Shown in pieces: positions 14,972 to 63,024 of a stretch of DNA of 64,000 nt. Under the pieces are notes generated by a model. It saw nothing but the letters and a program-made list of their open reading frames with translations, was not told the origin of the DNA and made no database searches. The DNA comes from Candidatus Omnitrophota bacterium (GTDB lineage: Bacteria > Omnitrophota > Gorgyraeia > Duberdicusellales > 4484-171): NCBI GenBank assembly GCA_018826075.1, contig JAHKAJ010000015.1, positions 15,091-79,090 of the forward strand. The letters run 5' to 3'. Numbering within the stretch: the first letter of the stretch is position 1; each line of letters starts with the position of its first letter. The translations under genes were made by a program, and so were the position numbers.

Positions 14972-16819
14972 TCATTCAACGAACTTAGCCAAAGTTTCTT
15001 TGCTGGGCGGATGAAAATAGCTAGCCAGATAAGCCTTAGCTTTATCCCTTTGCAGATTAAAATCTTCCTGGCTTAAATTGTCTATCTCATCTAGTTTTGC
15101 TTTTAAAGAATCTTCTTTATGGACTACCCATTTTAGATGGCGGCAATCAAACAAAGGATCATAACTTAAAATTTCTCCGCGGTCAAAATGGATAACCGGT
15201 TTACCGATACTTAAGGCTTCCAGAGAAACAGTGGTTCCCCAATAGATAACAATATCGGCCCAAATAATATCGTCATAGAGATAATTTCCGTTGGAAACGC
15301 TGACGTTAGGCATCCGGCTCAAATCATAAGCAAACCTTCTTTTAAAATAAGGCCAGGGAACCATGGGATGAGTCCTTATTTTTATATGATAGCCGTTACG
15401 GCCCTGCATCTGGCTTAAAACATAATCCACTATACAGTGGACATCGATATTGCCTTCCAAAGCCACCAAAATATTCTTCAAACGCTTTCTTGGCTGAAAA
15501 GGTTTATCAAAAAGATATTCAAAACGCAAACCACAGGTAGCCTCAATAAAGCCCGGCTCATATTCACCATACCTCTCCATAATCTTCTTGGTTTCAACCC
15601 CAACAGTCAATATTTTATCCGGCAAAGGAGATAATGACCTATCGTGACCGACAACAAACATATTCACTGAAGATTGAGGAACAACCGTATGTTGATAGCC
15701 GATAATCCGGCTAGCCGGAGAATATCGCCTTAAAGCTAATATACACATCCGTTCCCAAGGTTTATTCTCATAAGTTAGAAGGAACTTTTCAACAGCAACT
15801 TTCTTAATCAGATTCTTAGTGCTCCAATAATGCAAAAAATGATAAAATCGGACGCCCTTAAAGGTCCTTTTTAATTCAGCGTTGATTATATCGGAAACAT
15901 CGTATCCGAAAAATAAAACCTTCCGATTAATCCTGATTTTAGTAAATAAAAACTCTATGGCCGCCTTTACAATACTCGGCAAAGTTAAGAGAGCTTCTAC
16001 CGGCAAAATAATCCGCTGCTGGCATTGGCTAATTTTTTTTAGGCACTGTTTATAATCACCTAAAATGCAGGCGTAAATCAAACTCTTTTGCTTACCCTTT
16101 AAAAACTCCGGCAAACTACCAAAAAAAACATCGCGGTAACTACCGTCTTTTAAAAACGAATGGTTATAAATAAAAGTTTTAATAACATAATAGGACTTTT
16201 TAGGATTAAGCTCTTTTTTTATCCTTGAGCCTAATTGTTTTCTGGCATATAAACTACGGCGATAAAACTTTACCGTCTTATATATAACTCCGATGGTTCT
16301 TCGAACAGTTATATATATTGAATCTAACCGCTTCTCGGCCGGATTACCGAAATAATGAAATTGTATATTAACGCTCTTTAAAGTTTTCTTCAGTAACCCG
16401 ATTGTGCTAATTGCCGGGCCGACAATAATTAACTGCAGATAGTCTTCATCTTTGGCAACTTTTGTCATAGTCAAAAACTGATAAAGAAACTCTGGAACTT
16501 TTGAGGCAAATCTGTCTTTGGAGGCTATATCGGTAGCCCACCATACCTTAGAAGAACTAAACTCTTGGGAACAACTCGCAATAGCTTTGTTGTATTCACG
16601 CAGGAATGCATCACGATAAAACTCATCGTGTTCGGACTTAGGGATTTTTTTAAAATTCTTAGCTTCGAGAAGATCCTCAGCCTTTTTGCTGACAGTTTTC
16701 CACAAAAGATATTTCCTGCCTTTTTGCTCTTTAGACGAAAGTGTAGCGAGATAGCTGATTAGCCGTCTTTCGGTTTTAAAAACAAGCGCTGATTTTATAA
16801 ATAGAGTTTCTTTATTCAT
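14972..16819 (-). CDS. Large GT-B-like protein, possibly a KpsC/KpsS (Capsule_synth)-type ulosonic-acid transferase.
   Basis: C-terminal ...DIVIYWGTTVSLEALSIGKPVIHF... resembles the Capsule_synth/TagF-type nucleotide-sugar binding motif. 615 aa. Confidence 0.3.
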   Translation of the reverse strand: MNKETLFIKSALVFKTERRLISYLATLSSKEQKGRKYLLWKTVSKKAEDLLEAKNFKKIPKSEHDEFYRDAFLREYNKAIASCSQEFSSSKVWWATDIASKDRFASKVPEFLYQFLTMTKVAKDEDYLQLIIVGPAISTIGLLKKTLKSVNIQFHYFGNPAEKRLDSIYITVRRTIGVIYKTVKFYRRSLYARKQLGSRIKKELNPKKSYYVIKTFIYNHSFLKDGSYRDVFFGSLPEFLKGKQKSLIYACILGDYKQCLKKISQCQQRIILPVEALLTLPSIVKAAIEFLFTKIRINRKVLFFGYDVSDIINAELKRTFKGVRFYHFLHYWSTKNLIKKVAVEKFLLTYENKPWERMCILALRRYSPASRIIGYQHTVVPQSSVNMFVVGHDRSLSPLPDKILTVGVETKKIMERYGEYEPGFIEATCGLRFEYLFDKPFQPRKRLKNILVALEGNIDVHCIVDYVLSQMQGRNGYHIKIRTHPMVPWPYFKRRFAYDLSRMPNVSVSNGNYLYDDIIWADIVIYWGTTVSLEALSIGKPVIHFDRGEILSYDPLFDCRHLKWVVHKEDSLKAKLDEIDNLSQEDFNLQRDKAKAYLASYFHPPSKETLAKFVE

Positions 16820-30591: not shown

Positions 30592-32037
30592 TCAAGCCTT
30601 AGCCAGGAGCTGCTTAAACAAACGTACAAATATGGGTAACTCCTTATGGATCGACCTGATCGGATCAATCTTTACCTTCATACAATAACCTAACCACAAA
30701 TAAAATAATACTCGATATAGCCCTGAGAAAGGTAACCAACTTAAAAACTCGGCTGCCGGCCGTAAAATCGGAAAGCGGATAATAATCCCGGCTATCTTTT
30801 GTAAATTTTCAATCTTTCTTTTTTCTTCGGCTGAAGAAAAGGTAAATATTGAAACTCTTTTATTCGACTCAAGAAAATTTTCTGAATTTTTCAGATAGCC
30901 ATTTTTTATGCCATATTTCATAATGTCCGTACCGGGATAAGGATAAATCAACCCGCAAGAAGCAAATGTCGGGCGTAATTTAATATTTAAATCGATTGTC
31001 TCTAAATCAATTCTGAAAGCATCGGGGGCTGGTATACCCATAATATTAAAAGTAACTATTCTGATTCCCTGCCGATGCAATACATCTGCAGCTTTAACAA
31101 TTTGATCATTAGTTATGTTTCGCTGTAATATTTCATTAGCAACCTTTTCGTTACCGCACTCAACCCCCATCCAAACATAACTCAATCCGGCATCGCGCAA
31201 CTGAGCAATGTCCTGCTCTCGAACTAAATCTGGACGTATTTCAATTGAGAAAGGGAGAGCTATCTTTTCCTTATATCTTTTGCAAAACTCATCCAGCCAG
31301 CCTTTAGGCTTCAAAACAAAATTGCTATCACAAAAAGAAACTTGAGTTAAGGGATAATAATCACGTACTTTCTCGATTTCCTCAATCACCCGCTCTGGAG
31401 ATACGCAACGGACCACATTGCCTTTGCCTTTATAGAATTCATTAAATTGTTTATTAAAACAATAACTACACTCAAAGGGACAACCGCGTGAGGCAAAAAA
31501 AGCCTTAGATCTTAAGTTTTTCATGTTGGGATCAGCATCATAAATAATCTTTCGATCGGGCAAGGGTAGCGTGCTTAAATCAGCTTCCAGGGGCCGCAAA
31601 GGATTTTTTATAATATTACCGTTATATTTTAGGTGAAAATTGAGGGTATTCTGATAATCTCCCCCCTTCTCCAGGCTCCGACAGAACTCAGGAAAGGCCT
31701 CATCGCCTTCACCAATACAAATAGCATCAACCCCATCTTCCTTAATCACCTGCGGAAAAAACATGGCATGCGGCCCGCCGAATACGGCTAGAAAATTAAA
31801 ATTTTTCTTGAGAGTCCGATTAACTTCCAAGAGTGTCGAATGTTCACCAGTCATGGCGCTATAGCCTACTACCTGAGGTGAAAATTCCCGCATAATTTCT
31901 TCTATTGTCGTCAAACCGCTAACACTTACTACCGCTAAACGAGTTTCGTGTCCGCAGCGATTCAAGCTTGCGCTAAGAGCCATGACGCCTATACGTTCAT
32001 AAGCAATTACATCCTTGATTATAAATAGTATTTTCAT
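30592..32037 (-). CDS. B12-binding radical-SAM enzyme (class B).
   Basis: N-terminal cobalamin-binding Rossmann domain and SRGCPFECSYC (CxxxCxxC). Confidence 0.75.
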   Translation of the reverse strand: MKILFIIKDVIAYERIGVMALSASLNRCGHETRLAVVSVSGLTTIEEIMREFSPQVVGYSAMTGEHSTLLEVNRTLKKNFNFLAVFGGPHAMFFPQVIKEDGVDAICIGEGDEAFPEFCRSLEKGGDYQNTLNFHLKYNGNIIKNPLRPLEADLSTLPLPDRKIIYDADPNMKNLRSKAFFASRGCPFECSYCFNKQFNEFYKGKGNVVRCVSPERVIEEIEKVRDYYPLTQVSFCDSNFVLKPKGWLDEFCKRYKEKIALPFSIEIRPDLVREQDIAQLRDAGLSYVWMGVECGNEKVANEILQRNITNDQIVKAADVLHRQGIRIVTFNIMGIPAPDAFRIDLETIDLNIKLRPTFASCGLIYPYPGTDIMKYGIKNGYLKNSENFLESNKRVSIFTFSSAEEKRKIENLQKIAGIIIRFPILRPAAEFLSWLPFSGLYRVLFYLWLGYCMKVKIDPIRSIHKELPIFVRLFKQLLAKA

Positions 32038-46849: not shown

Positions 46850-48055
46850 TTAACCTTCTTGCTTATTATTTATAAACTCTTCGACGATTTTTAAAAAATA
46901 ATCGAGATGCTCTTTGCCTAAATCCTGATGCACCCCAATATGCAGACCATTGTTACCTACATACTCAGCATTTGGGAAATCACCTAACTTATAGCCTAAG
47001 AATTCGAATCCCGGACATTGAGTCGGCATTGAAGAAAAAAGACTTCGTGTGTCAACGCCTTTTTCTTCAAGAAAAATCACCAATTGTTCACGACTGAATT
47101 TAGCCTTTTCCTGGACAATAATCGGAAAGGCATGTGGACCTATCTTTTCATAAGCGGCCTCTTCTATAGTTACAAGGTCAGCTTCGAACTTTTTAAAATT
47201 ATCAATTAAATATTTTAAGTTTTCTCTTCTTTTATCTAATATGTCCTGATAACTATCGATATTGCCAAGACCAATAGCCGCTTCCATTTCGTTCATCTTG
47301 CAGGAATAGCCAATCCGCTCAAAGCTAAATCGAATATCTCGCTTTTGACCATATTGAAACCGCTTAGCGCAATATTTAGATTGGGTATTAAGTTGGCAAA
47401 TTTTGCATTTGCAGGCTCGACCATGGCAACGCAACGATCTTAAAATTTCAGCAAATTCAGAGTTATCAGTAGTTATGATTCCGCCTTCAACCGTAGTGAT
47501 AATGTGGGCTACATAAAGGCTAAAAGCTCCCATATCAGCCAAGGCCCCAGCTTTTTTGCCCTTATATTCGGCACCATGAGCTTCAGCAGCATCTTCGATA
47601 ACATAAAGATTGTATTTTTTGGCTATTAGTTTAATCTCATCCATCGCTGCTGGTTTACCCATTAAATGAACCGGCATAATTGCGCATGTGTTATCAGTAA
47701 TTGCTGCCTCTATTTTTTTAGGATCGATATTTAAAGTTTTCCGATCAATATCGATAAATGCCGGCCTAAACCCGGCTTGCAACACTGCGTTTCCAGTAGC
47801 TACAAAAGAAAGTGCCGGAACTATTACCTGATCGTCTTTTTGAGCCCCAAAATCATACAATGTTGCTAAGGCTAAAGCATCGGCATCAGTGCCACTGGAT
47901 ACAGCGACTGCTTCTTTAACCCCGATTAGCTGAGCGAATCTCTCTTCCAATTCTCTTACATATTTACCGGAAGAAAGACGATTAGAATCTAAACACTGAT
48001 TAACCAATTCTTTTGCTTTAGTAGTAACTGAAATAGTACCAAAAGGTATTCTCAT
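46850..48055 (-). CDS. DegT/DnrJ/EryC1-family PLP sugar aminotransferase.
   Basis: VSSGTDALALA and the family-wide layout. The start is refined to the ATG at 48053..48055, which forms an ATGA overlap and has an AAGGGAG SD. Confidence 0.8.
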   Translation of the reverse strand: MRIPFGTISVTTKAKELVNQCLDSNRLSSGKYVRELEERFAQLIGVKEAVAVSSGTDADALALATLYDFGAQKDDQVIVPALSFVATGNAVLQAGFRPAFIDIDRKTLNIDPKKIEAAITDNTCAIMPVHLMGKPAAMDEIKLIAKKYNLYVIEDAAEAHGAEYKGKKAGALADMGAFSLYVAHIITTVEGGIITTDNSEFAEILRSLRCHGRACKCKICQLNTQSKYCAKRFQYGQKRDIRFSFERIGYSCKMNEMEAAIGLGNIDSYQDILDKRRENLKYLIDNFKKFEADLVTIEEAAYEKIGPHAFPIIVQEKAKFSREQLVIFLEEKGVDTRSLFSSMPTQCPGFEFLGYKLGDFPNAEYVGNNGLHIGVHQDLGKEHLDYFLKIVEEFINNKQEG

Positions 48056-49482
48056 TTTTTCAACTCCCTTTGGAAAAGACATCTTTTAATTTTGTCAGTC
48101 AATCTAAATAACATAAGAATCGCCCCTAAAATTCCACTTTTACGAATCATCGGTAAAATTCGCCAAGGAGCAGAATAGATACTTAAAAATCCGTCATTTT
48201 GTAGCTGAAGTAACTTTTCGGCCGACAACTCGTTCACCTCCATAACCGCTGAACCGTAACGCCTGTACCTTGAATAGTCTTCAGTCAATAATCTTAATCC
48301 ATAATCTCCTCTTCTAGCCATATCATAAAGCTCAGTGCCAGGGTAGGGAGTAGCAATGCTAAAATTGGCCTGCTGAATATCTCGGGCCTGACGCAAAAAG
48401 CTAAGTGTTTTGCCTACGGTTTCAGCTGTCTCCCCGGGTAAACCAAGCATAATCGAATTCAAAGTCTCAATGCCATATTTATTAGTAATCCGATTGGCTT
48501 TTTCATAACTATCTAAAGGAACTTCTTTTTTAATAATTTTGCGAATTTCAGGATCGACAGTTTCTAAACCAAAAGAAATTCTAATTAAACCGCTGTTAGC
48601 CATAACTTCTACCAACTCTTCATCAATCAGATTTGCTCGAGTGCTGCCGTCAAAAGTTATTTTCAAGTTCTCTTTAATTATTGCCTGACAAATTGCTAAA
48701 ATATAGTTTCGATCCAAAGTAAGAGTATCATCAAGAAAAGTAAAATGCCGAGTATTAAAATTATAAATCACTGACTTAATCTCAGCGATGACTGAATCTA
48801 CAGATCTTCTTCTCACCTGACTTCCAAATACTTTAGTGCTACAAAATATGCATTTAAAAGGGCAACCTCTTGTAGTCATGATAGTAGTGAAATTCTTTCT
48901 GCCCCTTAAAGTTCCGATATTATATTTTTCTCTGTTTAGCAGGTGTCGGGCCGGATAAGGTATTGAATCGATGTCCTTTACTGGTTCTGAACTGCCGGTA
49001 GAAATAGTTTTGCCGTCTTTCCGATAAATAATGCCTTTAATACCGGAAATGTCTTCATCATTTTCATAACGGTTCAAAAAATTAACCCATGACTCCTCAG
49101 CTTCGCCAATAAACGCATAGTCAAAACAAGCTGGGAAATCTTTTTCCTGTAATATAGTTATATGGGCCCCTCCGATAACTATCGGGATATTAGAAAACCT
49201 CCGTTTAAAAGCCTTGGCATGCTCAACCACTATATGGAAAAAAGGAGTAGTTGCGGTCATGCCGATAATATCCGGATTGAAATTTTCTATTTCTTTGGTA
49301 ATTTTTTCTAAAGAAATATTTTCAGCCTCAGCATCGATAATTTTCACTGTATGACCCAGTTTTTCAGCCAAAGCAGCGATGTAAGCTAAATTTAACGGCG
49401 GCCAAATAGATGCTTTTTTGGCAAAATGCGAAAATATTCCGTATTCAGCCGTCCAGCGTGGAAATAGCAATAGGATCTTCAT
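48052..49482 (-). CDS. B12-binding radical-SAM enzyme (class B).
   Basis: N-terminal B12-binding domain and TRGCPFKCIFC. Confidence 0.75.
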   Translation of the reverse strand: MKILLLFPRWTAEYGIFSHFAKKASIWPPLNLAYIAALAEKLGHTVKIIDAEAENISLEKITKEIENFNPDIIGMTATTPFFHIVVEHAKAFKRRFSNIPIVIGGAHITILQEKDFPACFDYAFIGEAEESWVNFLNRYENDEDISGIKGIIYRKDGKTISTGSSEPVKDIDSIPYPARHLLNREKYNIGTLRGRKNFTTIMTTRGCPFKCIFCSTKVFGSQVRRRSVDSVIAEIKSVIYNFNTRHFTFLDDTLTLDRNYILAICQAIIKENLKITFDGSTRANLIDEELVEVMANSGLIRISFGLETVDPEIRKIIKKEVPLDSYEKANRITNKYGIETLNSIMLGLPGETAETVGKTLSFLRQARDIQQANFSIATPYPGTELYDMARRGDYGLRLLTEDYSRYRRYGSAVMEVNELSAEKLLQLQNDGFLSIYSAPWRILPMIRKSGILGAILMLFRLTDKIKRCLFQRELKK

Positions 49483-52217: not shown

Positions 52218-53029
52218 AAGCTCGATTCCTCAACTAGAGCATCAACCTCTTGGGCCGAAAGAGACCGAACATGGCAAAGACTATCATTTTCTAATTTAGG
52301 GACCCCTTTTCCTTTTTTGGTTTGAGCAATAATGAGCTTAGGCTTAGAGTTTCTGTCTTTTTTGGCTTTCAGCAAAACTTCCTGCATTACCGCTGGGTTA
52401 TGACCGTCAACTTCTTGAGTCATCCAACCAAAAGCCTTAAATTTATCGGCTAAGGGAGTTAAATCAAGTATTTTACTGCAATAATCAAGCATGCAAATCT
52501 TATTGTTATCAATAATTAAAATTAGATTATCCAACTTATGATAGCCGGCAAACATAACTGCCTCCCAAACTGAACCTTCATAAAGCTCTCCATCACCAAG
52601 AACAACAAAAACGCTCTCAAGCCTATTCTTTCTCTTTAAACCTATAGCTACTCCTGAAGCCACGCCTAGGCCGTGGCCTAGGGAACCATTTATAGTTTCA
52701 TAGCCAGGAATCAGGGTGTCGGGGATACCACCCAAGAACGAGCCTTCCTTGCAAACAGTTAAAAGTTCTTTTTTATCAAAAAATCCTAAATCAGCTAAAA
52801 TCGGATATAAACAGATTGAACCATGGCCTTTGCTGACTATCAACCGGTCTCTGTCTTCGGCCCTAAGGTTTGTCGGGTCATATTTCAATACTTTGCCATA
52901 ATACAGAGCCACAAAAAGCTCAACACTGGATAACGAAGAGGCAATCCGGGTCTCAGGAGCTAACTTATGCACCTTTAAAGTTTCTTTACGCACCCAATTA
53001 GACTTTTCAACTAAGAAATTTGGCTGCAT
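52214..53029 (-). CDS. Transketolase, N-terminal (TPP-binding) subunit.
   Basis: GHGSICLYP...LGDGELYEGSVWEA. Confidence 0.75.
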   Translation of the reverse strand: MQPNFLVEKSNWVRKETLKVHKLAPETRIASSLSSVELFVALYYGKVLKYDPTNLRAEDRDRLIVSKGHGSICLYPILADLGFFDKKELLTVCKEGSFLGGIPDTLIPGYETINGSLGHGLGVASGVAIGLKRKNRLESVFVVLGDGELYEGSVWEAVMFAGYHKLDNLILIIDNNKICMLDYCSKILDLTPLADKFKAFGWMTQEVDGHNPAVMQEVLLKAKKDRNSKPKLIIAQTKKGKGVPKLENDSLCHVRSLSAQEVDALVEESSL

Positions 53030-54516
53030 TCTAATGGATCCTCAAACAGCTTCCGGTTTAGTTTATGTTCCAACATCTGCTTTATATGTTCAAGCGTAGG
53101 TTGACCGAATTTTTCCTCAACCATCTTAAGATATCTAGGATTTTTATAATACTCATCAAAGGCCCGGTCTCTAAAACTTAACACCTCTTTGGCCGAAATA
53201 TGCTTAGTAGCCAAAGGAATAGTTTCTCGACTAATCTGTGAATATTCGAGCCAATTAGAAGAAAGTTTAATTCCCTGCTTTAGGGACTCCTGATAAAGCC
53301 TTGAACCAGGATAAGCCATGGTGGTGTAAAAATTAATATATTCGCAATTAAGCTCTTTTGCTAAATCTAAAGTCTCCTGCATTGATTCTAAATCATCATC
53401 GGGAAGGCCAAACATAAAATTACCGATTATGTTAATTCCTGCATCTTTGGTCATTTCAACCACTCTTTTTATTGCCGCCTGATCAAACCTACCCTTGGAA
53501 ACTTCCTCACGCACTTTTCTGCTAGCAGCTTCGATTCCATAAGCTAACCAATTTACTCCGGCTTTTTTTAACTTGTTCAAAATAGCTTCATCAACTGTAT
53601 CAATTCTGGCATAAGCCCAAATATTTAAATCATAGTTACGCTCAATCAATAAATCACAAAATTGGTTAACTCTTTCCTTATTAAGAACAAAAAGTTCATC
53701 AAGAATTTTAAAGTTTTTAACAGCATACTTCTTTACTAAAAAATCTATCTCTTCAACTACTTTTGAAATACTGCGATAACGTATTCCCGGTTGCCCATTG
53801 TACAACGCCCTGATATTGCAATATTTACAGTCAAAAGGACAACCCAAACTAGTATAGATAACTGCATAAGGACTGCGTTGATTGACATGGTCAAAACAAT
53901 GCCAATTGTGAGCACGGTATTTATCCATCGGCAAAAGATCCCAGGCAATAAACCCCAACTCATCTAAATCTTTAATTAAATCTGCCCAACCATTAGCAAT
54001 AACTTTCCCGTTTTTTACATACCAAAGACCTTTAATCAAAAGATCTCCCATTTCCTGATCAGTTTTCAATGTTTTTAAAAGTTCTAAAATCGGATAGAAA
54101 CTTTCTCCCCGACAAACAAAATCAACTGCTTCCTCCTTGAGAGTTTTCTCAGGCAAAGCTGAAACGTGAATACCATAGGCGACGGTCTTACCCTTAAGCT
54201 GCTTTGCTTTAAGCAGTTTTAAAACCTGACTGGCTGCGGCCATCTTAGGTGTTGATGCCGCCGATGGATTAGCCCCTATTGTACCAACGCCAATCAAAAT
54301 TGGATCGCAAGCAACGATTCTTTCAACGATCTCTTGAGTACTTAACTTTTCTGCATCAGCATCTATAATTGCGACTTCAAATCCCTTGTCGCGAATAAAA
54401 CTGGCTAACAAACCTGTCCATACTGGAGGTTCGATTCCAGAAAAAACCTCACTCAGTTTTCCATATGTGACTTTTTTATTGCCGGGATTTATTAGTAAAA
54501 GGTCTGGCTTATTCAT
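53011..54516 (-). CDS. B12-binding radical-SAM enzyme (class B).
   Basis: B12-binding N-terminal domain and SLGCPFDCKYCN. Confidence 0.75.
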   Translation of the reverse strand: MNKPDLLLINPGNKKVTYGKLSEVFSGIEPPVWTGLLASFIRDKGFEVAIIDADAEKLSTQEIVERIVACDPILIGVGTIGANPSAASTPKMAAASQVLKLLKAKQLKGKTVAYGIHVSALPEKTLKEEAVDFVCRGESFYPILELLKTLKTDQEMGDLLIKGLWYVKNGKVIANGWADLIKDLDELGFIAWDLLPMDKYRAHNWHCFDHVNQRSPYAVIYTSLGCPFDCKYCNIRALYNGQPGIRYRSISKVVEEIDFLVKKYAVKNFKILDELFVLNKERVNQFCDLLIERNYDLNIWAYARIDTVDEAILNKLKKAGVNWLAYGIEAASRKVREEVSKGRFDQAAIKRVVEMTKDAGINIIGNFMFGLPDDDLESMQETLDLAKELNCEYINFYTTMAYPGSRLYQESLKQGIKLSSNWLEYSQISRETIPLATKHISAKEVLSFRDRAFDEYYKNPRYLKMVEEKFGQPTLEHIKQMLEHKLNRKLFEDPLECSQIS

Positions 54517-54525
54517 TGAGCTCCT

Positions 54526-55458
54526 CTAAACGTTAGAATATTGATTCCTTTTTATAATCTGATATCCTTTTATCAATTCAGCAATTCCATCTTGGAGTGA
54601 AACATCAGGTTTTAATCCGGTAGCTTCGATTTTTTCATTACTAACAATATAGTCTCTTTTGTCGGGATCTTCGCCGATATCGGCTTCAACAAAATAAAAA
54701 TCAGGGAGTTGCTTCTTAATCTCCTGGCATAACTCTCCTTTGCTTAAATTAGCATCACTCAAACCTACGTTATAAGCCTGATTTTTCATAGTTTCAAAAT
54801 TACCTAAAGCATGAATAAAAGCCTTAGCCACATCACGAACATGGATATAATTTCTTTTGAAATGAGCCTGAAAAAGAACTATGAACTTATCGTTTACAGC
54901 TCGGTAAACAAAGTCATTAACTAAAAGATCGAGGCGCATTCGGGGGCTAACTCCAAAAGCAGTGGCTAAACGTAAAGTAATGACATTTCCAGATTCAAGC
55001 AGCATTTTTTCAGTTTCTACCTTTAACTTTCCATAAAGCGAAACCGGCCTTAAAGGAGTTTCCTCGGTACAAAAAATGTCTTTTTGGCCTATACCATAAC
55101 CACTATTGGTGGTTGGGTAGACGATAGTCTGATTTTGGCTACGTAAATCCAATATTAGCTTCACTGCGTCAAGAATAACGCTCCTGGCCACTAAAGGGTC
55201 TTTCTCGCAAAGCGGAGCGCCAGTAAGACAAGCTAAAGGAATAATAGCCTCCACTCCTTTCATGCTCTCGGAAATTATGCTTTTATCTCTGGCGTCACCA
55301 CGGATAATGGTTAATTTTTTATGATTGCAGCAATCTAGAAGTGAAGACTGATTATACATAAAGTTATCAACTACTCTTACTTCATGGCCATTATTAAGTA
55401 ATTGAGGAACTAATACTGATCCTATATAACCGGCCCCGCCAGTAACTACTATTCTCAT
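54526..55458 (-). CDS. NAD-dependent NDP-sugar epimerase/reductase (extended SDR).
   Basis: RIVVTGGAGYIGS and YGKLK. Confidence 0.7.
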   Translation of the reverse strand: MRIVVTGGAGYIGSVLVPQLLNNGHEVRVVDNFMYNQSSLLDCCNHKKLTIIRGDARDKSIISESMKGVEAIIPLACLTGAPLCEKDPLVARSVILDAVKLILDLRSQNQTIVYPTTNSGYGIGQKDIFCTEETPLRPVSLYGKLKVETEKMLLESGNVITLRLATAFGVSPRMRLDLLVNDFVYRAVNDKFIVLFQAHFKRNYIHVRDVAKAFIHALGNFETMKNQAYNVGLSDANLSKGELCQEIKKQLPDFYFVEADIGEDPDKRDYIVSNEKIEATGLKPDVSLQDGIAELIKGYQIIKRNQYSNV

Positions 55459-56423
55459 ATTTTCTTAACCCCCGTTTCAGCTTCATTGTTTGATAGTTTA
55501 ACCGCCGTTTGATAACCAAGATAGGTCTTAGCAATTCCTTCCTCTAGCGATGTTTTCGGCAGCCAGCCTAATTTTCTTATTTTTGTAGCATCTAAAGACT
55601 TCTCAGGAGCTCCGTCAGGTTTTGTGTTGTCAAAGATAAGTTCTCCTTTGTACCCGACAATATCTTTTATAACCATAGCTAATTCTTTTATCGAGATATT
55701 TTCTCCTGAGCCAAGGTTAATTGCTGTCGAACCATTATAACTAGTTATCAAAAAAATAGCCGCCTTGGCAACATCATCAATAAAAACAAATTCTCTTCTC
55801 GGATTACCACTTCCCCAAACAATCACCGAATCAAAATTATTAATCTTAGCTTGATGAAATTTATCAATTAAAGCCGGAAGCACATGTGAATCTTGAGAAC
55901 CAAAATGATCATCAGGACCATAAATATTTGAAGGTATAATACAGATAAAACTTGTTTTATACTGACGATTATAAGCCTCACACATTTTAACCCCGGCAAT
56001 TTTAGCTATAGCATAAGGTTCACTGGTTGACTCTAGGCGCCCTGTCAGCAGGTTATCTTCATTCATCGGCTGAAGGCAATGCTTAGGATACATGCAAGCA
56101 CTGCCAAAGAATAAAAGCTTTTTAACTCCCGAAGCGTATGCCGAATGGATGGTATTGGTCTGGATCATAAGGTTCTCGTAGATAAAATCTGCTGGATAGC
56201 TACTGTTTGCACCGATTCCACCGACCCGGGCAGCAGCTAAAAATACATAATCGGGCCTCTCCTGACTGAAAAATCTTTCAACTTCTATCTGCCGAGTAAG
56301 ATCCAATTCTTGATGGCTTCTGGTTAGTAGATTGGTATAGCCTTTTTTATTAAGTTCACGAACTAAGGATTTTCCGACTAATCCTGTGTGTCCGGCAACA
56401 TAAATCCTAGCCTGTTTTTCCAT
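55455..56423 (-). CDS. GDP-L-fucose synthase-like (Fcl/WcaG) 3,5-epimerase/4-reductase.
   Basis: RIYVAGHTGLVGKSLVREL...FLAAARVGGIGANSSYPADFIYENLMIQTN closely matches Fcl. No GMD-like gene was recognised nearby. Confidence 0.75.
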   Translation of the reverse strand: MEKQARIYVAGHTGLVGKSLVRELNKKGYTNLLTRSHQELDLTRQIEVERFFSQERPDYVFLAAARVGGIGANSSYPADFIYENLMIQTNTIHSAYASGVKKLLFFGSACMYPKHCLQPMNEDNLLTGRLESTSEPYAIAKIAGVKMCEAYNRQYKTSFICIIPSNIYGPDDHFGSQDSHVLPALIDKFHQAKINNFDSVIVWGSGNPRREFVFIDDVAKAAIFLITSYNGSTAINLGSGENISIKELAMVIKDIVGYKGELIFDNTKPDGAPEKSLDATKIRKLGWLPKTSLEEGIAKTYLGYQTAVKLSNNEAETGVKKI

Positions 56424-56427
56424 AAAT

Positions 56428-58404
56428 CTAAATACCCAACTTCTCTTCAGTCCAGGTCCGTTTTTCCTTATACCACTGGACAGTATTTTTTATTCCGGTT
56501 TTAAAATCTACCTGGGTTGAGAAACCCAAAGCCGAGATCTTTGATGAATCCAGGCAATAGCGAAAATCATGGCCTGGACGGTCAGTGACAAAATCAATAC
56601 AGTCTTTATCTTTTCCCAATAGTTTTAAGATCTCTCTGGCTAAATCGATATTTCTTTTCTCAACCCCTGAGCCTAAGTTATAGACTTCGCCAAGCTTTCC
56701 CTTGTCCATGACCAAAGCAATACCCCGGACACAATCGGTAACATAAAGCCATTCGCGTTTATTCAATCCTTGAGCATAGACCGGAATTTTTCTATCGGCT
56801 AAAACACTGGAGATCGCCACCGGGATAAACTTTTCCGGGTATTGCCAGGGGCCGTAATTATTGGAAGGCCTGATGGTCACTGCCGGAAAACCATAAGTCC
56901 GGACATAGGCTCGAACTAGGAAATCTGCGGCAGCCTTAGAAGCTGAATACGGCGAATTAGGCGCCAAAGGATGATTTTCCTTAAACTTACCTTTTTCAAT
57001 ATCACCGTAAACTTCATCGGTGGAAATATGGACAAACCTCTTTACCTTATATTTGCGGGCGCAGGCTAAAAGGTTAAGAGTACCCCGGACATTGACTTCT
57101 TCAAAAATAAACGGGTCTCTGATTGAATTATCGACATGGGTATTATGACAAACTACATTTCCTATTCCACAAACGAAATTGTGGCTCTTCTCTACTTCCA
57201 GATCATAAACCCAACCTTCATATTGAATTTCCTGTTTTTTTCTCTTCACCAATCCATAATGCTGGCCAGATAATTCAGTCTTAAACTCCCAGCTTCTTTT
57301 ATAGTTCTTTCTATCGCATTCAAAAACTTTGAATTTTTTTCCTTGTAATGTTAAAAGGAGGCTGATTTGATTCGTTAATTTGTAAGAAGTAGTCGAATAC
57401 CTGCCATCTTTAGTGCCATCACCTTCGAGTAACTTACTCCAAAAAAAACTCCGTTGATTAGCTTCTAAATCAAAAATCCAATCTGGGAAGAATTTTCCAT
57501 CACAATATTTTCCACAATTTTTTATTAAATAATTGAAAAACTTTTTATTGGACACCTGTAAATAAAACACATCTTTATGCTGTTTATTTTTATGCTTACC
57601 GATATAGCATTTTAACGAAAATTCTTTTCTAATTAGTTCTCCTATATGTTCAATCCATCCCTTGTTAGCTTGATTAATTTCTATGATATATCCGCCATTA
57701 GCCTTATTGAAAGTCGCATTTCCTTCTGTTATATAGGCTGCTAGAATTTCCAAAAGTGCCAAGCTTTTTCTCTTATTCCTTTTTTTTATTTCATTTATTT
57801 CTCTAATAACCAATAACTCCGGGTTAGTGTGCGGATTAGTCAACTCAAGACTTGAACTATAAATAGAATGGTTTGGAGTTGCTTTTATAACTCCATGCTT
57901 CTGAATTAGTTTTATAATCTTACCTTTATACCTATGTCGAGTAATTGCTTTGACTGGCATCCATTGGCCACCATTCAGAAAACTTAAAATTTTCGTCTGC
58001 TTGCCTCTTAAAAATATCGCTTCCCCCTTTTCGTTCTTTATGGGCTTATTATTTTTAGCCTGTTCTTTCCACAGCTCACCAAAGGTAATTGTTCTTGTCC
58101 CTATCCTGGGGACAGATTGAACTGGGACATAAATATCCTCGGGAATGCTTTCAGCCGCTAAATGTACCACCGTGTCTATAGGATGTGGAAAAATCTCTTC
58201 AATGTCAGAAATATTTCTTAAATCAGCCTTGATAAAATGATAACTTTTATTTTTGGAAACATCTTTCAAGCGGGCTAAATCTCCGGCGTAACTTAAATTA
58301 TCCAGGTTAAAGACGTTACAGTCGCGCTTATTTTCTAAAAGATAACGCACAAAATGCGATCCAATAAACCCTAAACCACCGGTAACTAAAATATTTTTAG
58401 CCAT
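56428..58404 (-). CDS. rmlB: dTDP-glucose 4,6-dehydratase (RmlB) interrupted by an intein.
   Basis: ILVTGGLGFIGSHF...HLAAE|intein|THVDNSI...YSASKAA.... The protein is 658 aa against about 320-350 for RmlB. Confidence 0.8.
   Translation of the reverse strand: MAKNILVTGGLGFIGSHFVRYLLENKRDCNVFNLDNLSYAGDLARLKDVSKNKSYHFIKADLRNISDIEEIFPHPIDTVVHLAAESIPEDIYVPVQSVPRIGTRTITFGELWKEQAKNNKPIKNEKGEAIFLRGKQTKILSFLNGGQWMPVKAITRHRYKGKIIKLIQKHGVIKATPNHSIYSSSLELTNPHTNPELLVIREINEIKKRNKRKSLALLEILAAYITEGNATFNKANGGYIIEINQANKGWIEHIGELIRKEFSLKCYIGKHKNKQHKDVFYLQVSNKKFFNYLIKNCGKYCDGKFFPDWIFDLEANQRSFFWSKLLEGDGTKDGRYSTTSYKLTNQISLLLTLQGKKFKVFECDRKNYKRSWEFKTELSGQHYGLVKRKKQEIQYEGWVYDLEVEKSHNFVCGIGNVVCHNTHVDNSIRDPFIFEEVNVRGTLNLLACARKYKVKRFVHISTDEVYGDIEKGKFKENHPLAPNSPYSASKAAADFLVRAYVRTYGFPAVTIRPSNNYGPWQYPEKFIPVAISSVLADRKIPVYAQGLNKREWLYVTDCVRGIALVMDKGKLGEVYNLGSGVEKRNIDLAREILKLLGKDKDCIDFVTDRPGHDFRYCLDSSKISALGFSTQVDFKTGIKNTVQWYKEKRTWTEEKLGI
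57142..58149 (-). mobile_element. Intein (about 336 aa) with a LAGLIDADG-type homing endonuclease, inserted in the RmlB HLAAE-S/THVD active-site region.
   Basis: Ser1 is residue 86 (codon 58147..58149). Block B reads GVIKATPNHSIY. The LAGLIDADG-like motifs are LALLEILAAYITEGNA and FFWSKLLEGDGTKDGRY. The C-terminal blocks F and G read GWVYDLEVEKSHNFVCGIGNVVCHN, ending at Asn421 (57142..57144), followed by Thr+1. Confidence 0.7.
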
Positions 58405-58957
58405 AGTTAAATCCTACATCGGCATCCTGCAAAGTAGGCCATTTTTTATCCCGTTCTGACAGAATCGGTTCTAAGCTGGGCCAGTGGACATCAATGGTCC
58501 GGTCTGACCAGATGATCCCCCGGTCGTCAGCCGGAGAATACTCATTGCTACAGCTATAGATGACTTCGCTGTTTTCCTCAAGGGTACAGAAACCGTGAGC
58601 AAAACCTTCGGGGATATAAAGCATAGCCTGATTTTTAGTCGAAAGCACAGCTGAAACCCAACGGCCAAAAGTAGCTGAACCCCGCCTGATATCCACTGCT
58701 ACATCAAGGATGCCTCCCGAAACCACCCTGACTAATTTTGCCTGCTGCATTGGTTTTTTCTGAAAATGTAAACCCCGGATCACTCCTTTAGCAAAAGTTT
58801 TAGAGTGATTCTCCTGAACAAACCGGTCTTTGATCCCGAATTTGGCAAAATCGCTTTCCTTATAGGTTTCCATAAAAAACCCCCGTTCATCGCCGATTAA
58901 GCGGGGCTTGATCAAGACCACTTCCGAGATTTCCAACCTTTTAAATTCAAAGGGCAT
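58397..58957 (-). CDS. rmlC: dTDP-4-dehydrorhamnose 3,5-epimerase (RmlC).
   Basis: Cupin-fold RmlC; ERGFFMETY; 186 aa. Confidence 0.8.
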   Translation of the reverse strand: MPFEFKRLEISEVVLIKPRLIGDERGFFMETYKESDFAKFGIKDRFVQENHSKTFAKGVIRGLHFQKKPMQQAKLVRVVSGGILDVAVDIRRGSATFGRWVSAVLSTKNQAMLYIPEGFAHGFCTLEENSEVIYSCSNEYSPADDRGIIWSDRTIDVHWPSLEPILSERDKKWPTLQDADVGFNYG

Positions 58958-58958
58958 T

Positions 58959-59828
58959 TTACTGTTCCTCAGCCAGAATGCTTAATAAATACTCTCCGTA
59001 ATTAGTGTTTACCTGTTTGGCTAATTGTCTTAACTGCCCGGCATTGATATAACCCATCCGAAAAGCTACTTCCTCGATACAGCCGACTTTTAAACCCTGG
59101 CGGTCTTCAATGGTCTTTATAAACATTGAAGCGTCGATTAAGGAATCATAGGTTCCGGTATCCAGCCAGGCATAGCCGCGGTTGAGAAATTTAGTTTTCA
59201 GTTTGCCGCGTTTAAGATATTCATTATTGACATCAGTGATCTCAAGCTCCCCCCGGGCTGAAGGCTTAAGAGCTTTGGCAATCTCGATTACTTTATTATC
59301 ATAAAAGTACAAACCGGTCACTGCCCAGTTTGATTTAGGATTGGCGGGTTTTTCTTTAAGCGCTGTAATATTTTTATTCTTGTCGAATTCGATTACTCCG
59401 TACCTCTCGGGATCTTTTACGTAATAACCGAAGATTACTCCACCCTCCGGTTCTGAAGCCGCTTCAACTAAAAGATCGGAAAGATTATGGCCATACAAAA
59501 CATTATCTCCTAAAATCAAACAAACCCGGTCTTGGCCGATAAACTCCTCGGCCAGAATAAAGGCCTGGGCTATACCTTCAGGCTTACTTTGAGCCAGGTA
59601 AGAAAATTTTACCCCTAAAGAACTTCCGTCACCCAAAAGATATTGAAAACGTTCAAGATCCCGGGGGGCTGAAATTATCAGAATATCCCTGATCCCGGCC
59701 AGCATTAAGACTGATAAAGGGTAATAAATAAGCGGCTTATCATAAACCGGCAGTAATTGTTTGCAGACCCCTTTAGTGATCGGATAAAGCCTGGTAGCAG
59801 TACCTCCGGCTAGAATTATTCCTTTCAT
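58959..59828 (-). CDS. rmlA: Glucose-1-phosphate thymidylyltransferase (RmlA).
   Basis: [37 protein letters not shown]. The ATG at 59826..59828 with a GGAGG SD is preferred over the track's TTG. Confidence 0.85.
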
Positions 59829-59830
59829 AA

Positions 59831-60208
59831 TCAAACCTCCGCCTTAATATCTTCAATCTCCTCTCCGTTAGCAATCAACTCCTGCTGTAACTTGCTCCAT
59901 TCGCTGCGCATCCGATTATATTCTTCCTCTTTTTTCTTTAAAAAGTGATAGGCAAGATGAATCTTCTGCTTTAAGCCGCTTTTAGTAAGAATATACCTTA
60001 CCTTACCCAACTTATCTTTGCCATGGGAGAAATTTCTGGCTTTGATCAGGTTTTTCTTGATTAGCGATTTTAGCAAGTAGTTAGTTTTACCCAAAGAGAT
60101 CTCAAGATGACTCGACACATCTCTCTGAGTTAAATCGTCTTGGCTGGATAAAAGACGCAGGATATTAAAAATATCCTCACCGAGAGTATATTTTTCTTCT
60201 TTCGCCAT
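59831..60208 (-). CDS. Small winged-helix (MarR/PadR-like) transcriptional regulator; first gene after the promoter.
   Basis: 125 aa, with a ...[30 protein letters not shown]... HTH-like segment and a C-terminal coiled-coil. Confidence 0.4.
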
Positions 60209-60351: not shown

Positions 60352-61146
60352 CTATAACTTGCTGCGGTTTAATATCTTAGAAAGAATATCTTTCCGGGGA
60401 GCCGCGCAGATAAAACCGGAGTTTTTTAAGCTTTTCTTGTTATAGCTTAGACCCAAGACCCTGGCTCCAGAGCTTTCAGCGATGGCCTGGCCGCTAGCAG
60501 TGTCCCACTCCATGGTCGGGCCTTGCCTTAGGTAAAGATCGGCTTTTGCCTCAGCCACCCGGCAGAACTTCAGGGAACTTCCGGCATAAATTATCCGGGG
60601 ATTCTTAAACCAAGAGACCACTGTTTCTTCCTCAAGGCTTTGGTGAGAACGGCTCCGTACTATTACCACTCGCTTACCAGAAAGTTTATTGGCCAAAATC
60701 GGCTTAAACTTATTGTTTTTATCGACCTTAAAAGCGCCTTTTTGTTTCTGGCCGAAATATAATTGCTGCCGGGCCGGAATACCGATTATTCCTAAAACCG
60801 GCTGAGAGTTATGGATTAAGGCGATATTGACCGTAAACTCTCCGTTTCGTTTAATAAACTCTTTGGTTCCGTCCAAAGGATCGATCAACCAAAAATATTT
60901 CCAGTTCTTTCTTTTGCTGAAACTTACCGGCCGGCTTTCTTCGGAAATAAGCGGTATCTTGGGAAATAATTTCTTTAGCTTTTTAACTATCAGCTCCTGA
61001 GAAAGCTGATCAGCCAAAGTTAAAGGGCTATTATCTTTTTTTATTGAGACTTCGGTTTGATGGGAATTATAAACTTCGATTATCTTTTGGCCGGCCAGAG
61101 AGGCTATCTTAAGCAGTTGTTTTATCTGAGAATCATTAAAAATCAT
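60352..61146 (-). CDS. cysQ: 3'(2'),5'-bisphosphate nucleotidase (CysQ; inositol monophosphatase family).
   Basis: WLIDPLDGTKEF. Confidence 0.75.
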   Translation of the reverse strand: MIFNDSQIKQLLKIASLAGQKIIEVYNSHQTEVSIKKDNSPLTLADQLSQELIVKKLKKLFPKIPLISEESRPVSFSKRKNWKYFWLIDPLDGTKEFIKRNGEFTVNIALIHNSQPVLGIIGIPARQQLYFGQKQKGAFKVDKNNKFKPILANKLSGKRVVIVRSRSHQSLEEETVVSWFKNPRIIYAGSSLKFCRVAEAKADLYLRQGPTMEWDTASGQAIAESSGARVLGLSYNKKSLKNSGFICAAPRKDILSKILNRSKL

Positions 61147-61760
61147 TTTTGGATATAACCATTCTTGTCCAAATAATCTAAGATCGCTTTTGCGCTTTCC
61201 TGCTTATTAAATTTTTCTGTATCTACAACTAGCTCAGGGCTTTGCGGCTCTTCATATGGGGCGGAAATTCCGGTAAATTCTTTAATTACCCCCGAACGGG
61301 CTTTTTGATAAAAGCCTTTAGGGTCTCTTTGTTCACAAATCGAAAGCCCGGCTTTAATAAATACCTCGATAAAATCACTCTTGGATAAGATCTTTCTTAC
61401 CTGATCCCGGTCTTTTCGGTAAGGAGAGATGAAGGCAGTTATAACTAAAAATCCGGCATCGGAAAAAAGTTTTGCCACTTCTCCAATCCTGCGGATATTT
61501 TCCTCACGGTCCTGGGGTGAAAATCCCAGGTTGCTGTTCAAACCGTGCCTGATATTATCCCCGTCTAAGACGTAAACTTGACAATCTCTTTCAAATAGCA
61601 TTGCCTGCAGCTCGACAGCTATAGTTGACTTTCCCGAAGAAGGAAGCCCGGTAAACCAGATAACCGCTCCTTTGTTTTTGTTTCTTTGTTCGCGGTCGGA
61701 TTTTGAAACTCCGCTCTCATGCCAGGTTATATTTGTACTTTTAATTTTATCCTTATTCAT
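61143..61760 (-). CDS. cysC: Adenylylsulfate (APS) kinase.
   Basis: GAVIWFTGLPSSGKSTIA. Confidence 0.85.
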   Translation of the reverse strand: MNKDKIKSTNITWHESGVSKSDREQRNKNKGAVIWFTGLPSSGKSTIAVELQAMLFERDCQVYVLDGDNIRHGLNSNLGFSPQDREENIRRIGEVAKLFSDAGFLVITAFISPYRKDRDQVRKILSKSDFIEVFIKAGLSICEQRDPKGFYQKARSGVIKEFTGISAPYEEPQSPELVVDTEKFNKQESAKAILDYLDKNGYIQK

Positions 61761-63024
61761 CTTTTCTCCTTCGGTAATAATCAGTTAAAATTTGCGAAAC
61801 CGGTTTGCGCATCACTCTTTGATCGACTTCTTCGCCATTCTGAAGTTTTTTTCTCAACTCCTTACCGGAAATCGATATCTGATGATAGCCTTTTTTACCA
61901 AACTCATCAACCAGGCCGACTCTTTCTATTTCCTCAAAATAAGCGGCAAAACCGACCTTGACCGGCTGGATAAGCAGTTCACCCTTAAGTTGACTGAATT
62001 TATCCTGGGCATCAAAGTCACGCCAGGCCGCAATTCCGTCATCAAAAGAAGCGTCGGCGTGTTTCCTGCCGATAATAATGTCACTAAATCCGTAATTCTG
62101 CCGATAGATAGCATGCATTATCGCCTCTTTGGGCCCGGCATAAAACATCTTCATATCCAGCCCGATCAGTAAAAATTCATCGCTTAGATCATAACCTTTA
62201 GTTTTCCATAGCTCTAAATCTTTATCACCAAAACCCAGCAGTTTATGTTCGATCAAGGCCTCATAAGTCTGCATCCGGACATCAGCCGGGACATCATCGG
62301 ATTTAGTTGCCCCGACTAAAGGGTTAAGCACTACTCCGGTAAAAAAACCCTGCCGGGTAAGCTCCTCCATGGCATAAACCAGGGCATATTCATGGGCCCG
62401 GTGTAAAGCATTTCTGGTCTGAAAAGCAATAATCCTTTCCCAGCCGCGCTTCTTGAATATTTCTCTAGTAGCTTGGGGAAAAAGCATGTATTTGCTGTAG
62501 GCCGAACGGGCAACTTGAGAGAAAGCCCGGATCTTTCCGCCTAAAAGGTACTCGCGCCGGTCATCGTTAACAATCCGGGGGCCGGGATGATCAATGCGTT
62601 CAGTACCGTAAACTGATCGGTTATAAGCTTTCTTATCAAAAAAATAAATATCGGAAATTTCCAGCAGGCCGACAGTCTCGCCGGATTCAGTTTTAACGGC
62701 CACGGTTTCGCCGATACTGAATTTGTCGGCTTCTTGCTTATAAACTGGAAAAGCGATCGGAATAGTCCAGGCATAAAGTTTGCCATTCCTTTCTATGCAT
62801 TCATCCTGCAAAACTTTATTAAACTCATTTTCATCCATCGGCCCTTCTAAAGGAGATAGGGCTCCGTCGGCAATCCGGTAAAATACCGAAAGATCTGAAT
62901 CGAAAATATTATAAACCTTGATTTGTGAAGTTTTGGCTAAAAAACCGGGTTTTTCGGATTCGCTGATAAAGCGGTTGATCAGGCCTATGCCGCCGTGAAC
63001 CGGATAACTACTCTGATTTTTCAT
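61753..63024 (-). CDS. sat: Sulfate adenylyltransferase (ATP sulfurylase, Sat type).
   Basis: IAFQTRNALHRAHEYAL (QTRN...H...H motif). Confidence 0.8.
   Translation of the reverse strand: MKNQSSYPVHGGIGLINRFISESEKPGFLAKTSQIKVYNIFDSDLSVFYRIADGALSPLEGPMDENEFNKVLQDECIERNGKLYAWTIPIAFPVYKQEADKFSIGETVAVKTESGETVGLLEISDIYFFDKKAYNRSVYGTERIDHPGPRIVNDDRREYLLGGKIRAFSQVARSAYSKYMLFPQATREIFKKRGWERIIAFQTRNALHRAHEYALVYAMEELTRQGFFTGVVLNPLVGATKSDDVPADVRMQTYEALIEHKLLGFGDKDLELWKTKGYDLSDEFLLIGLDMKMFYAGPKEAIMHAIYRQNYGFSDIIIGRKHADASFDDGIAAWRDFDAQDKFSQLKGELLIQPVKVGFAAYFEEIERVGLVDEFGKKGYHQISISGKELRKKLQNGEEVDQRVMRKPVSQILTDYYRRRKDE

Follow-up and report, generated by a model that had tools for sequence, protein, structure and literature searches.

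A predicted class-1 intein with a LAGLIDADG homing endonuclease domain in the rmlB gene of an Omnitrophota bacterium, and its relatives at the same site

Introduction

The rmlB gene on contig JAHKAJ010000015.1 of a Candidatus Omnitrophota bacterium (assembly GCA_018826075.1) encodes a dTDP-glucose 4,6-dehydratase that is interrupted within a conserved motif, and the question raised by this locus is what the insert is, whether the enzyme could be recovered from the interrupted precursor, and whether the element is still able to move. The gene lies in a stretch of 64,000 nucleotides (positions 15,091 to 79,090 of the contig), referred to below as the window, and all coordinates are those of the window. 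An earlier note on this DNA had described a 658-aa RmlB with a 336-aa insert at 57142-58149, and both the open reading frame (ORF) coordinates and the translation agree with this exactly. The analysis leaves hardly any doubt that the insert is a true intein and that it contains an endonuclease domain. Judged from its sequence, it is a canonical class-1 intein with a nested, single-chain, two-motif LAGLIDADG homing endonuclease.

Insertion site in RmlB

In silico removal of the insert leaves exteins which together comprise 322 aa, and the spliced protein aligns end to end with the RmlB structures 6bi4 and 2hun (E ~1e-95). The insert starts with SIPEDIYVPV and ends with GIGNVVCHN, and is located in frame between HLAAE and THVDNSI, splitting the HLAAE-(S/T)HVDNSI motif as the earlier note had reported. 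The comparison of the exteins with RmlB homologues proposed there is gap-free at the junction for both structures (vvhlAAE-T-HVDnSI against AAE-S-HVDRSI). A search of a collection of 5.8 billion proteins revealed that the nearest extein relatives, 68-84% identical, are intein-free; the ten closest are 320-322 aa in length, most of them exactly 322 aa, which bears out the normal RmlB length attributed to the residual extein. The AAE-S/T-HVDNS sequence is found at the site in all six closest relatives whose sequences were read, and one empty-site relative (79% identity) has its gene in the same context, Sat/CysC-CysQ-HTH-rmlC-rmlB. In the empty allele L090 the site reads GTGCATTTGGCAGCTGAA followed directly by AGCCACGTGGATAACTCG. 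No domain was found at the intein position in the structures and nearest relatives of intein-free RmlB. The gap-free spliced alignment and the intein-free close relatives together indicate, at the level of sequence comparison, that the insert is a true insertion, polymorphic among close relatives, and the reading as a lineage-specific RmlB domain is rejected.

The identity of the host enzyme was established by profile comparison. The whole 658-aa protein matches the RmlB equivalog model TIGR01181 with 390.9 bits against a cut-off of 365.1, the match being divided into two stretches at profile position ~82, whereas the gmd model TIGR01472 gives 48 bits against a cut-off of 415. The window exteins retain G9, G12 and G15 of the GxxGxxG loop, and likewise T462, E464, Y486 and K490; in alignment A2 the residues S461, T462, E464, Y486 and K490 are nearly invariant. 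The characteristic features of RmlB are thus all present: (i) the equivalog match; (ii) GxxGxxG; (iii) the catalytic T-D-E; (iv) YxxxK; (v) the setting in an rml operon, in which rmlA and rmlC are located directly upstream on the same strand, the end of rmlC overlapping the start of rmlB by 8 nt, and the order rmlA-rmlC-rmlB is intact. The public record of exactly this protein, MBU2044117.1, is named 'GDP-mannose 4,6-dehydratase' and has no intein annotated. This deposited name is a Pfam-family label, and on the sequence criteria given above the enzyme is RmlB of the dTDP-rhamnose pathway.

In the structural model of the precursor (pLDDT 87.4) strand beta4 comprises residues 78-81 and helix alpha4 starts at residue 424. 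According to this model, the intein interrupts the NAD-binding Rossmann fold at the beta4/alpha4 junction, in the hAAE(S/T)HVD motif, which we take to line the NAD pocket in extended short-chain dehydrogenases/reductases (SDRs). The catalytic T-D-E and YxxxK are located 40-70 residues downstream of the insertion, in the C-extein. The earlier note had placed the insert in the active-site region; a conserved motif is indeed split, but the position is better described as the beta4/alpha4 junction. With the NAD-binding fold split in this way, a precursor that has not been spliced is probably without activity.

The Thr+1 codon is ACC (57139-57141), and position +1 is Thr (ACY) in all close intein-bearing rmlB alleles, whereas in the nearest empty alleles (L089 and L090) it is Ser (AGY), from the same codon family as Ser1 of the intein. 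The insertion boundary is thereby ambiguous by one codon at the DNA level, and the spliced RmlB would differ from that of the empty alleles by a Ser to Thr change.

Domain organization of the intein

All motifs quoted in the earlier note (the Ser start, TxxH, two LAGLIDADG motifs, and the C-terminus with Thr+1) are present in the insert, which contains GVIKATPNHSIY, LALLEILAAYITEGNA, FFWSKLLEGDGTKDGRY and, followed by Thr, VYDLEVEKSHNFVCGIGNVVCHN; the coordinates of the domains and blocks are given in Table 1. The C-terminal junction reads WVYDLEVEKSHNFVCGIGNVVCHN followed by T, and so combines block F/G, the His-Asn end and Thr at +1. Family alignments show that Ser1, Y315, D316, H335 and N336 are invariant among the same-site inteins described below, as are T91 and H94 of block B. 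In the endonuclease part E142 and G143 do not vary among 10 same-site inteins, K219 and D244 are invariant, and G245 and P222 nearly so. The two LAGLIDADG helices end in acidic residues (...AAYITE142GN and ...KLLEGD244GT). The GC content of the intein is 33.7%, compared with 43.1% for the C-extein and 38.8% for the whole window.

The description as a full-length intein with a LAGLIDADG endonuclease is supported by family models, phmmer, the structural model and Foldseek, with scores well outside what chance would give. The search of the insert with intein hidden Markov models (HMMs), proposed in the earlier note, came out divided: NCBIfam intein_Cterm (TIGR01443; 25.6 bits, cut-off 15.6) and Pfam LAGLIDADG_3 (23.2 bits, cut-off 22.5) pass, but Intein_splicing and intein_Nterm remain just under their thresholds and are weighed below. 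A phmmer search against the PDB found PI-PkoII at E 2.1e-11, and also the TFIIB, RadA and KlbA inteins. The AlphaFold2 model of the intein, built from 40 family members, is of high confidence (pLDDT 93.4, pTM 0.92) and comprises two LAGLIDADG halves, each arranged as alpha-beta-beta-alpha-beta-beta(-alpha), with the helices at 130-142 and 230-244, surrounded by a Hint domain rich in beta-strands (residues ~1-122 and ~299-336). In the Foldseek comparison of this model with the PDB the top matches are all homing-endonuclease inteins, of which 2cw7 is the best (E 2.2e-19, TMq 0.74), followed by 7qss, 7qsu, 7qst, 1dq3 and 1vde; solved inteins, among them the mini-inteins 5o9i and 4e2t, are matched with a probability of 1.00. 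The middle part of the model matches I-DmoI (root-mean-square deviation 3.2-3.5 over ~180 columns) and I-SceI. A Hint fold and a pseudo-dimeric LAGLIDADG fold are therefore predicted for the insert.

The closest solved relative in both sequence and fold is PI-PkoII, the DNA polymerase intein 2 of Thermococcus kodakarensis (2cw7). In both elements a two-motif LAGLIDADG endonuclease divides the Hint domain and the C-terminus ends in HN, and blocks B, C, E and G can be aligned. In contrast to the window intein, PI-PkoII resides in a family-B DNA polymerase of a hyperthermophilic archaeon and has 537 aa with extra domains (TMt 0.48); the identity is ~16%, the insertion site is another one and presumably also the DNA target. 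The inteins TliVMA/PhoVMA (7qss, 7qsu, 7qst), PI-PfuI (1dq3) and PI-SceI (1vde) are likewise class-1, full-length LAGLIDADG inteins (Foldseek E 3e-18 to 5e-08), which share with the window intein the block-D lysine and the two LAGLIDADG acidic residues. They differ in their V-ATPase or ribonucleotide reductase hosts, in having Cys1 instead of Ser1, and in an identity of only 10-16%.

Block G (NFVCGIGNVVCHN) contains two cysteines, C334 (57148-57150) and C327 (57169-57171), which are kept in close RmlB inteins and also occur in the inteins of PrkA-type serine kinases; in more distant Gmd-hosted inteins these positions are V, A or I (sequences compared: P0012, P0014, P0055 and P0063). Among 108 six-frame ORFs of the window, an HMM made from the family alignment matched only the rmlB ORF, and no other intein was found.

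Evidence for recent transfer between rmlB alleles

The intein of another Omnitrophota contig (L001) is 98.0% identical to that of the window at the DNA level and 95% identical at third codon positions, 15 of the 20 differences being synonymous. Outside the intein the identity of the same two contigs is 64% for the N-extein, 76% for the C-extein and 68% for rmlA; the break occurs exactly at both splice junctions, and third positions in the exteins are near saturation. In a third allele (P0283) the intein identity is 97.6%, against 76-78% for the exteins. Taken together, the inteins of two other Omnitrophota rmlB alleles are 97-99% identical to that of the window, with exteins that are only 63-83% identical. 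Among loci from GTDB, which are one-genome-per-species representatives, a same-site intein with 66-99% identity to that of the window was found in six, belonging to Omnitrophota (two), Planctomycetia, a Patescibacteria-group bacterium, Kuenenbacteria and WWE3. In each of the six loci the intein is closer to its counterpart in the window than the exteins are, the opposite of what vertical descent predicts.

For the Hint part and the endonuclease part alike, dN/dS lies at 0.07-0.09, and none of the intein ORFs examined contains a stop codon; on these sequence comparisons both intein domains are under purifying selection. The pattern points to an element which is active in homing now or was so very recently, and this fits better than a decaying passenger. 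The endonuclease itself is likely to be active, or to have been active until very recently.

Related inteins at the same site

A HMMER scan over 1.84 billion cluster representatives gave 547 matches at E <= 1e-3, 30 of them at E <= 1e-30. Among 162 proteins, made up of the best 150 scan matches and the matches of an earlier search, 36 are extended-SDR proteins with an intein at the same site. The host exteins are RmlB, GDP-mannose 4,6-dehydratase (Gmd; profile position 86 of TIGR01472), RmlD and RmlB/GalE-like proteins. The claim of the earlier note that such an intein is uncommon stands for the window's own relatives, since none of the 119 relatives listed from other genes carries one, but not for the site as such, at which related inteins are present in dozens of protein clusters from several bacterial phyla, viral contigs and two cultured methanogens. 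A profile search located inteins at the same RmlB codon in the complete genomes of the cultured archaea Methanotorris igneus (P0323) and Methanothermus fervidus DSM 2088 (P0327). The M. igneus intein retains SEGN and KGDG; that of M. fervidus has SSGY (AYISSGY) and KGINNG (LVKGINNG) in place of both LAGLIDADG acidic residues, and its endonuclease is, by sequence, probably dead.

Same-site inteins from archaea, metagenome-assembled genomes and viruses share with the window intein the insertion point (hAAE before Ser1, and HN before (T/S)HV), Ser1 and the block structure, at 33-99% identity, the archaeal copies reaching only 33-40%. On sequence grounds, these inteins of RmlB, Gmd, RmlD and GalE-like proteins are the actual family of the window intein, and in the sources naming them the proteins are not annotated as intein-containing. 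A neighbour-joining tree, rough and without support values, places all SDR-hosted inteins in one group. The host enzyme types are interleaved within it, which suggests repeated moves between paralogues. The nearest relatives outside the SDR hosts are inteins of PrkA-type kinases, with an almost identical block G.

The IMG/VR viral contigs L009-L014 (9.5-113 kb) likewise carry related inteins at the homologous position. In the viral Gmd genes the intein lies between YNLAAM and SHVxxSF, in a viral RmlB-like gene between HGAAE and THVDNS, and in both it starts with S and ends with HN. Viruses may be the vectors of spread between phyla. A wider proposal, which we put forward tentatively and hold to be somewhat less probable than its opposite, is that these elements form an undescribed, currently active intein lineage which targets the conserved beta4 motif (hAAE-S/T-HVD) of extended SDRs and has repeatedly hopped between paralogous genes for NDP-sugar enzymes (RmlB, Gmd, RmlD and GalE-like) and between distant hosts. 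The hosts in this proposal are Omnitrophota, Planctomycetia, Patescibacteria, methanogenic archaea and large viruses, the last of which could act as vectors.

Among the homologues P0002-P0006 and P0285, several gene calls start at an internal Met inside the intein. The Patescibacteria homologues P0002-P0006 were considered as frameshifted pseudogenes; this was rejected for P0002, whose ORF runs uninterrupted in L002 from a GTG start codon. The short P0002 protein is, on the DNA sequence, a gene-calling error, P0002 being the only one of the five whose DNA was checked. In Candidatus Kuenenbacteria GW2011_GWA2_42_15 (L006:2650-3100) the N-extein is broken, with MKLLVTGGAGFIGSNFILYWL in one frame, the IDTVVHFAAE-SITEN junction in a different frame and ~50 codons missing, and the 333-aa intein ORF is intact. 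This rmlB is either a pseudogene or an assembly error.

Proposed mechanism and alternative explanations

The 75.6-kDa precursor would be translated and then spliced by the Hint domain. An N-O acyl shift would occur first, at Glu85-Ser86, followed by transesterification to Thr422; cyclisation of Asn421 and an O-N shift would complete the reaction. What should result is a free intein of 39.1 kDa and an RmlB of 36.6 kDa, joined as ...HLAAE-THVDNSI..., for which the predicted junction peptide is NISDIEEIFPHPIDTVVHLAAETHVDNSIR. Synthesis of dTDP-rhamnose would depend on splicing. As a site-specific endonuclease, the free intein or the precursor would cut intein-less rmlB at the conserved sequence that encodes H-x-A-A-E-S-H-V-D, and repair from the intein-bearing copy would install the element (homing). 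Splicing, DNA cleavage and the homing event are inferred from the sequence, the predicted fold and the evolutionary signatures. That the intein splices is very probable, and the explanation as a whole (a splicing intein, a restored RmlB and an active homing endonuclease) is judged to be probable.

Several observations weigh against this explanation. With 33.7 bits (E 3.9e-08), Pfam Intein_splicing (PF14890) falls slightly short of its gathering score of 35.8, as does NCBIfam intein_Nterm (TIGR01445) of its cut-off of 24.5 with 20.9 bits (E 5e-04); these are near misses, outweighed by the motif and fold evidence. Homing often carries some flanking sequence along. The flanking exteins show no visible co-conversion tract, and in the comparison with L001 the flanking codons fall at once to ~50% third-position identity, from which it follows that the tract was very short or the route of transfer more complex. 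The regular difference at +1, Thr in intein-bearing alleles against Ser in the nearest empty ones, likewise agrees poorly with simple homing. The sequences of the three alleles sharing the same intein are all metagenome-assembled, and this sharing may partly reflect mis-binning. Mis-binning is not the cause of the discontinuity, because the junction-exact break falls on single contigs. Finally, Thr at +1 is a weaker nucleophile than Cys or Ser, and splicing could for this reason be slow or conditional.

The absence of a visible tract also speaks for an alternative in which the intein splices but has lost endonuclease activity; it would then be a passenger that has become fixed, is inherited vertically and has reached the end of the homing cycle. 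Sequence does not reveal whether the enzyme cleaves, and the M. fervidus homologue, having lost both LAGLIDADG acidic residues, shows that decay occurs in the family. This alternative is nevertheless unlikely, since E142, K219 and D244 are intact in the window copy and invariant among close relatives, the dN/dS of ~0.08 in the endonuclease domain equals that of the splicing domain, inteins 97-99% identical reside in rmlB alleles only 63-83% identical, and the nearest extein relatives are empty, the reverse of fixation with vertical descent. A regulatory role is less probable still: conditional splicing, for example by redox state or temperature, would form a post-translational switch on dTDP-rhamnose and glycan synthesis, and would add to the selfish-element explanation instead of replacing it. 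The split NAD-binding fold, which should render the precursor inactive, speaks for such a switch, as do C327 and C334, which flank the C-terminal splice site and whose conservation is confined to the subgroup of close RmlB and PrkA inteins. There is also a precedent, conditional splicing being documented for other inteins such as that of RadA (PMC4513877). However, both cysteines are replaced by V, A or I in more distant same-site inteins, and the sporadic distribution with empty closest relatives argues against a needed host function.

It is highly improbable that the insert does not splice at all, leaving rmlB disrupted and non-functional or the insert as a permanent extra domain. Splicing is a prediction from sequence, Ser1 with Thr+1 makes a comparatively slow nucleophile pair, and the Kuenenbacteria homologue has a damaged N-extein. 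Yet the splicing residues are all canonical and invariant, the 658-aa frame is open with GxxGxxG, STDE and YxxxK kept in the exteins, the gene is part of an intact operon, the Hint domain is under strong purifying selection, and intein-free RmlB has no domain at the insertion position. An artefact of assembly or binning, with a chimeric contig joining a foreign intein to rmlB, was also considered because the source of the window is a metagenome-assembled genome; its probability is negligible. Several sources record the identical 658-aa protein, which is found on two contigs of up to 125 kb, and the same in-frame architecture recurs at the same codon in independent assemblies of other samples and phyla and in the complete genomes of cultured M. 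igneus and M. fervidus; these independent occurrences effectively refute it. The preferred explanation remains the splicing intein with an endonuclease that is active or was so until very recently.

Genomic surroundings

The features of the rmlB locus are collected in Table 1.

Table 1. Coordinates of rmlB, its intein and the upstream rml genes in the window
Feature	Position	Strand	Remarks
rmlB precursor ORF, dTDP-glucose 4,6-dehydratase with intein	56428..58404	(-)	658 aa, 75.6 kDa; from the ORF list
N-extein	58150..58404	(-)	85 aa; GxxGxxG loop, strands beta1-beta4; ends in HLAAE
C-extein	56431..57141	(-)	237 aa; starts with the Thr+1 nucleophile (THVDNSI); catalytic STDE and YxxxK
Intein, Ser1 to Asn336	57142..58149	(-)	336 aa, 39.1 kDa, pI 9.65
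Hint (splicing) domain, N-terminal lobe, intein aa 1-122	57784..58149	(-)	family alignments; all-beta in the model
Block A, Ser1 codon	58147-58149	(-)	
Block B, T91-P-N-H94	57868-57879	(-)	
LAGLIDADG homing-endonuclease domain, intein aa ~123-298	57256..57783	(-)	model, Foldseek, Pfam
LAGLIDADG motif 1, ALLEILAAYITEGNAT	57712..57759	(-)	putative catalytic E142; alignment
Block-D lysine K219, upstream of LAGLIDADG motif 2	57493-57495	(-)	codon
LAGLIDADG motif 2, SFFWSKLLEGDGTKDGR	57400..57450	(-)	putative catalytic D244; alignment
Hint domain, C-terminal lobe, intein aa 299-336	57142..57255	(-)	blocks F and G (WVYDLEVEKSHNFVCGIGNVVCHN), His335-Asn336 end
rmlC, dTDP-4-dehydrorhamnose 3,5-epimerase	58397..58957	(-)	Pfam dTDP_sugar_isom, E 2.2e-71
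rmlA, glucose-1-phosphate thymidylyltransferase-type NTP transferase	58959..59834	(-)	Pfam NTP_transferase, E 1.4e-74

Two more extended-SDR paralogues, an epimerase/dehydratase and an Fcl-like enzyme, are encoded directly downstream of rmlB (54526-55458 and 55455-56423). Both are intein-free, and their beta4 motifs, IPLACLTG and FLAAARVG, are unlike the hAAE(S/T)HVD target. All 61 ORFs of at least 150 aa in the window (1-64000) are encoded by the minus strand and make up a single, very long cluster for glycan biosynthesis, and no tRNA genes were found in the window. The products sampled from the cluster include three B12-binding radical-SAM enzymes (30592-32037, 48052-49482 and 53011-54516), several DegT aminotransferases, a split transketolase, a GHMP kinase, methyltransferases, an ABC exporter and a GT2 glycosyltransferase. 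The cluster also contains a set for the synthesis of 3'-phosphoadenosine 5'-phosphosulfate, consisting of Sat (61753-63024), CysC (61143-61760) and a CysQ-like protein (60352-61146), which suggests a sulfated, heavily modified polysaccharide as the product.

Relation to described inteins and significance

Replication and repair proteins are the hosts of most inteins that have been well studied. The searchable literature yielded no account of an RmlB or Gmd intein, its co-mentions of inteins and such enzymes being incidental, although entries in intein catalogues are possible. InBase may list 'Ter Ndse' inteins in an NDP-sugar epimerase of Trichodesmium, for which the literature search gave no match. 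The text of the survey by Novikova et al. (PMC4760082) makes no mention of sugar enzymes. The rml clusters of M. igneus and M. fervidus are listed in PMC4022621, and term searches of the text of that article returned no note of an insertion in these archaeal genes. A precedent outside replication and repair is the 'udp' allele in the UDP-glucose dehydrogenase of Methanocaldococcus jannaschii and its relatives, listed in PMC4071816, which resembles the window intein in having a host from nucleotide-sugar metabolism but belongs to another enzyme family and another insertion site. The element described here is of an ordinary kind and mechanistically textbook, in a host gene, rmlB, which is not described for inteins in the searchable literature.

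The current understanding of inteins is left unchanged, and the window element is a well-documented new example of moderate specialist interest: an intein in the cofactor-binding motif of a sugar-nucleotide enzyme, with clear signatures of recent transfer between alleles. Once it is recognised, the gene models can be corrected, and so can the enzyme prediction, to an RmlB acting in dTDP-rhamnose synthesis. With its compact length of 336 aa, its Ser1/Thr+1 pair and its mesophilic source lineage, the intein is a candidate for protein engineering, and the LAGLIDADG nuclease with its well-defined ~30-bp candidate target may be considered for meganuclease work. The occupancy of the same site in paralogues across bacteria, archaea and viral contigs provides useful data on the movement of homing elements. 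If the tentative proposal of a lineage hopping between enzyme genes is true, the family would represent a natural system for the study of ectopic (paralogue-to-paralogue) intein invasion, and would offer a new meganuclease specificity and a splicing element without cysteine at the catalytic junction positions (Ser1/Thr+1).

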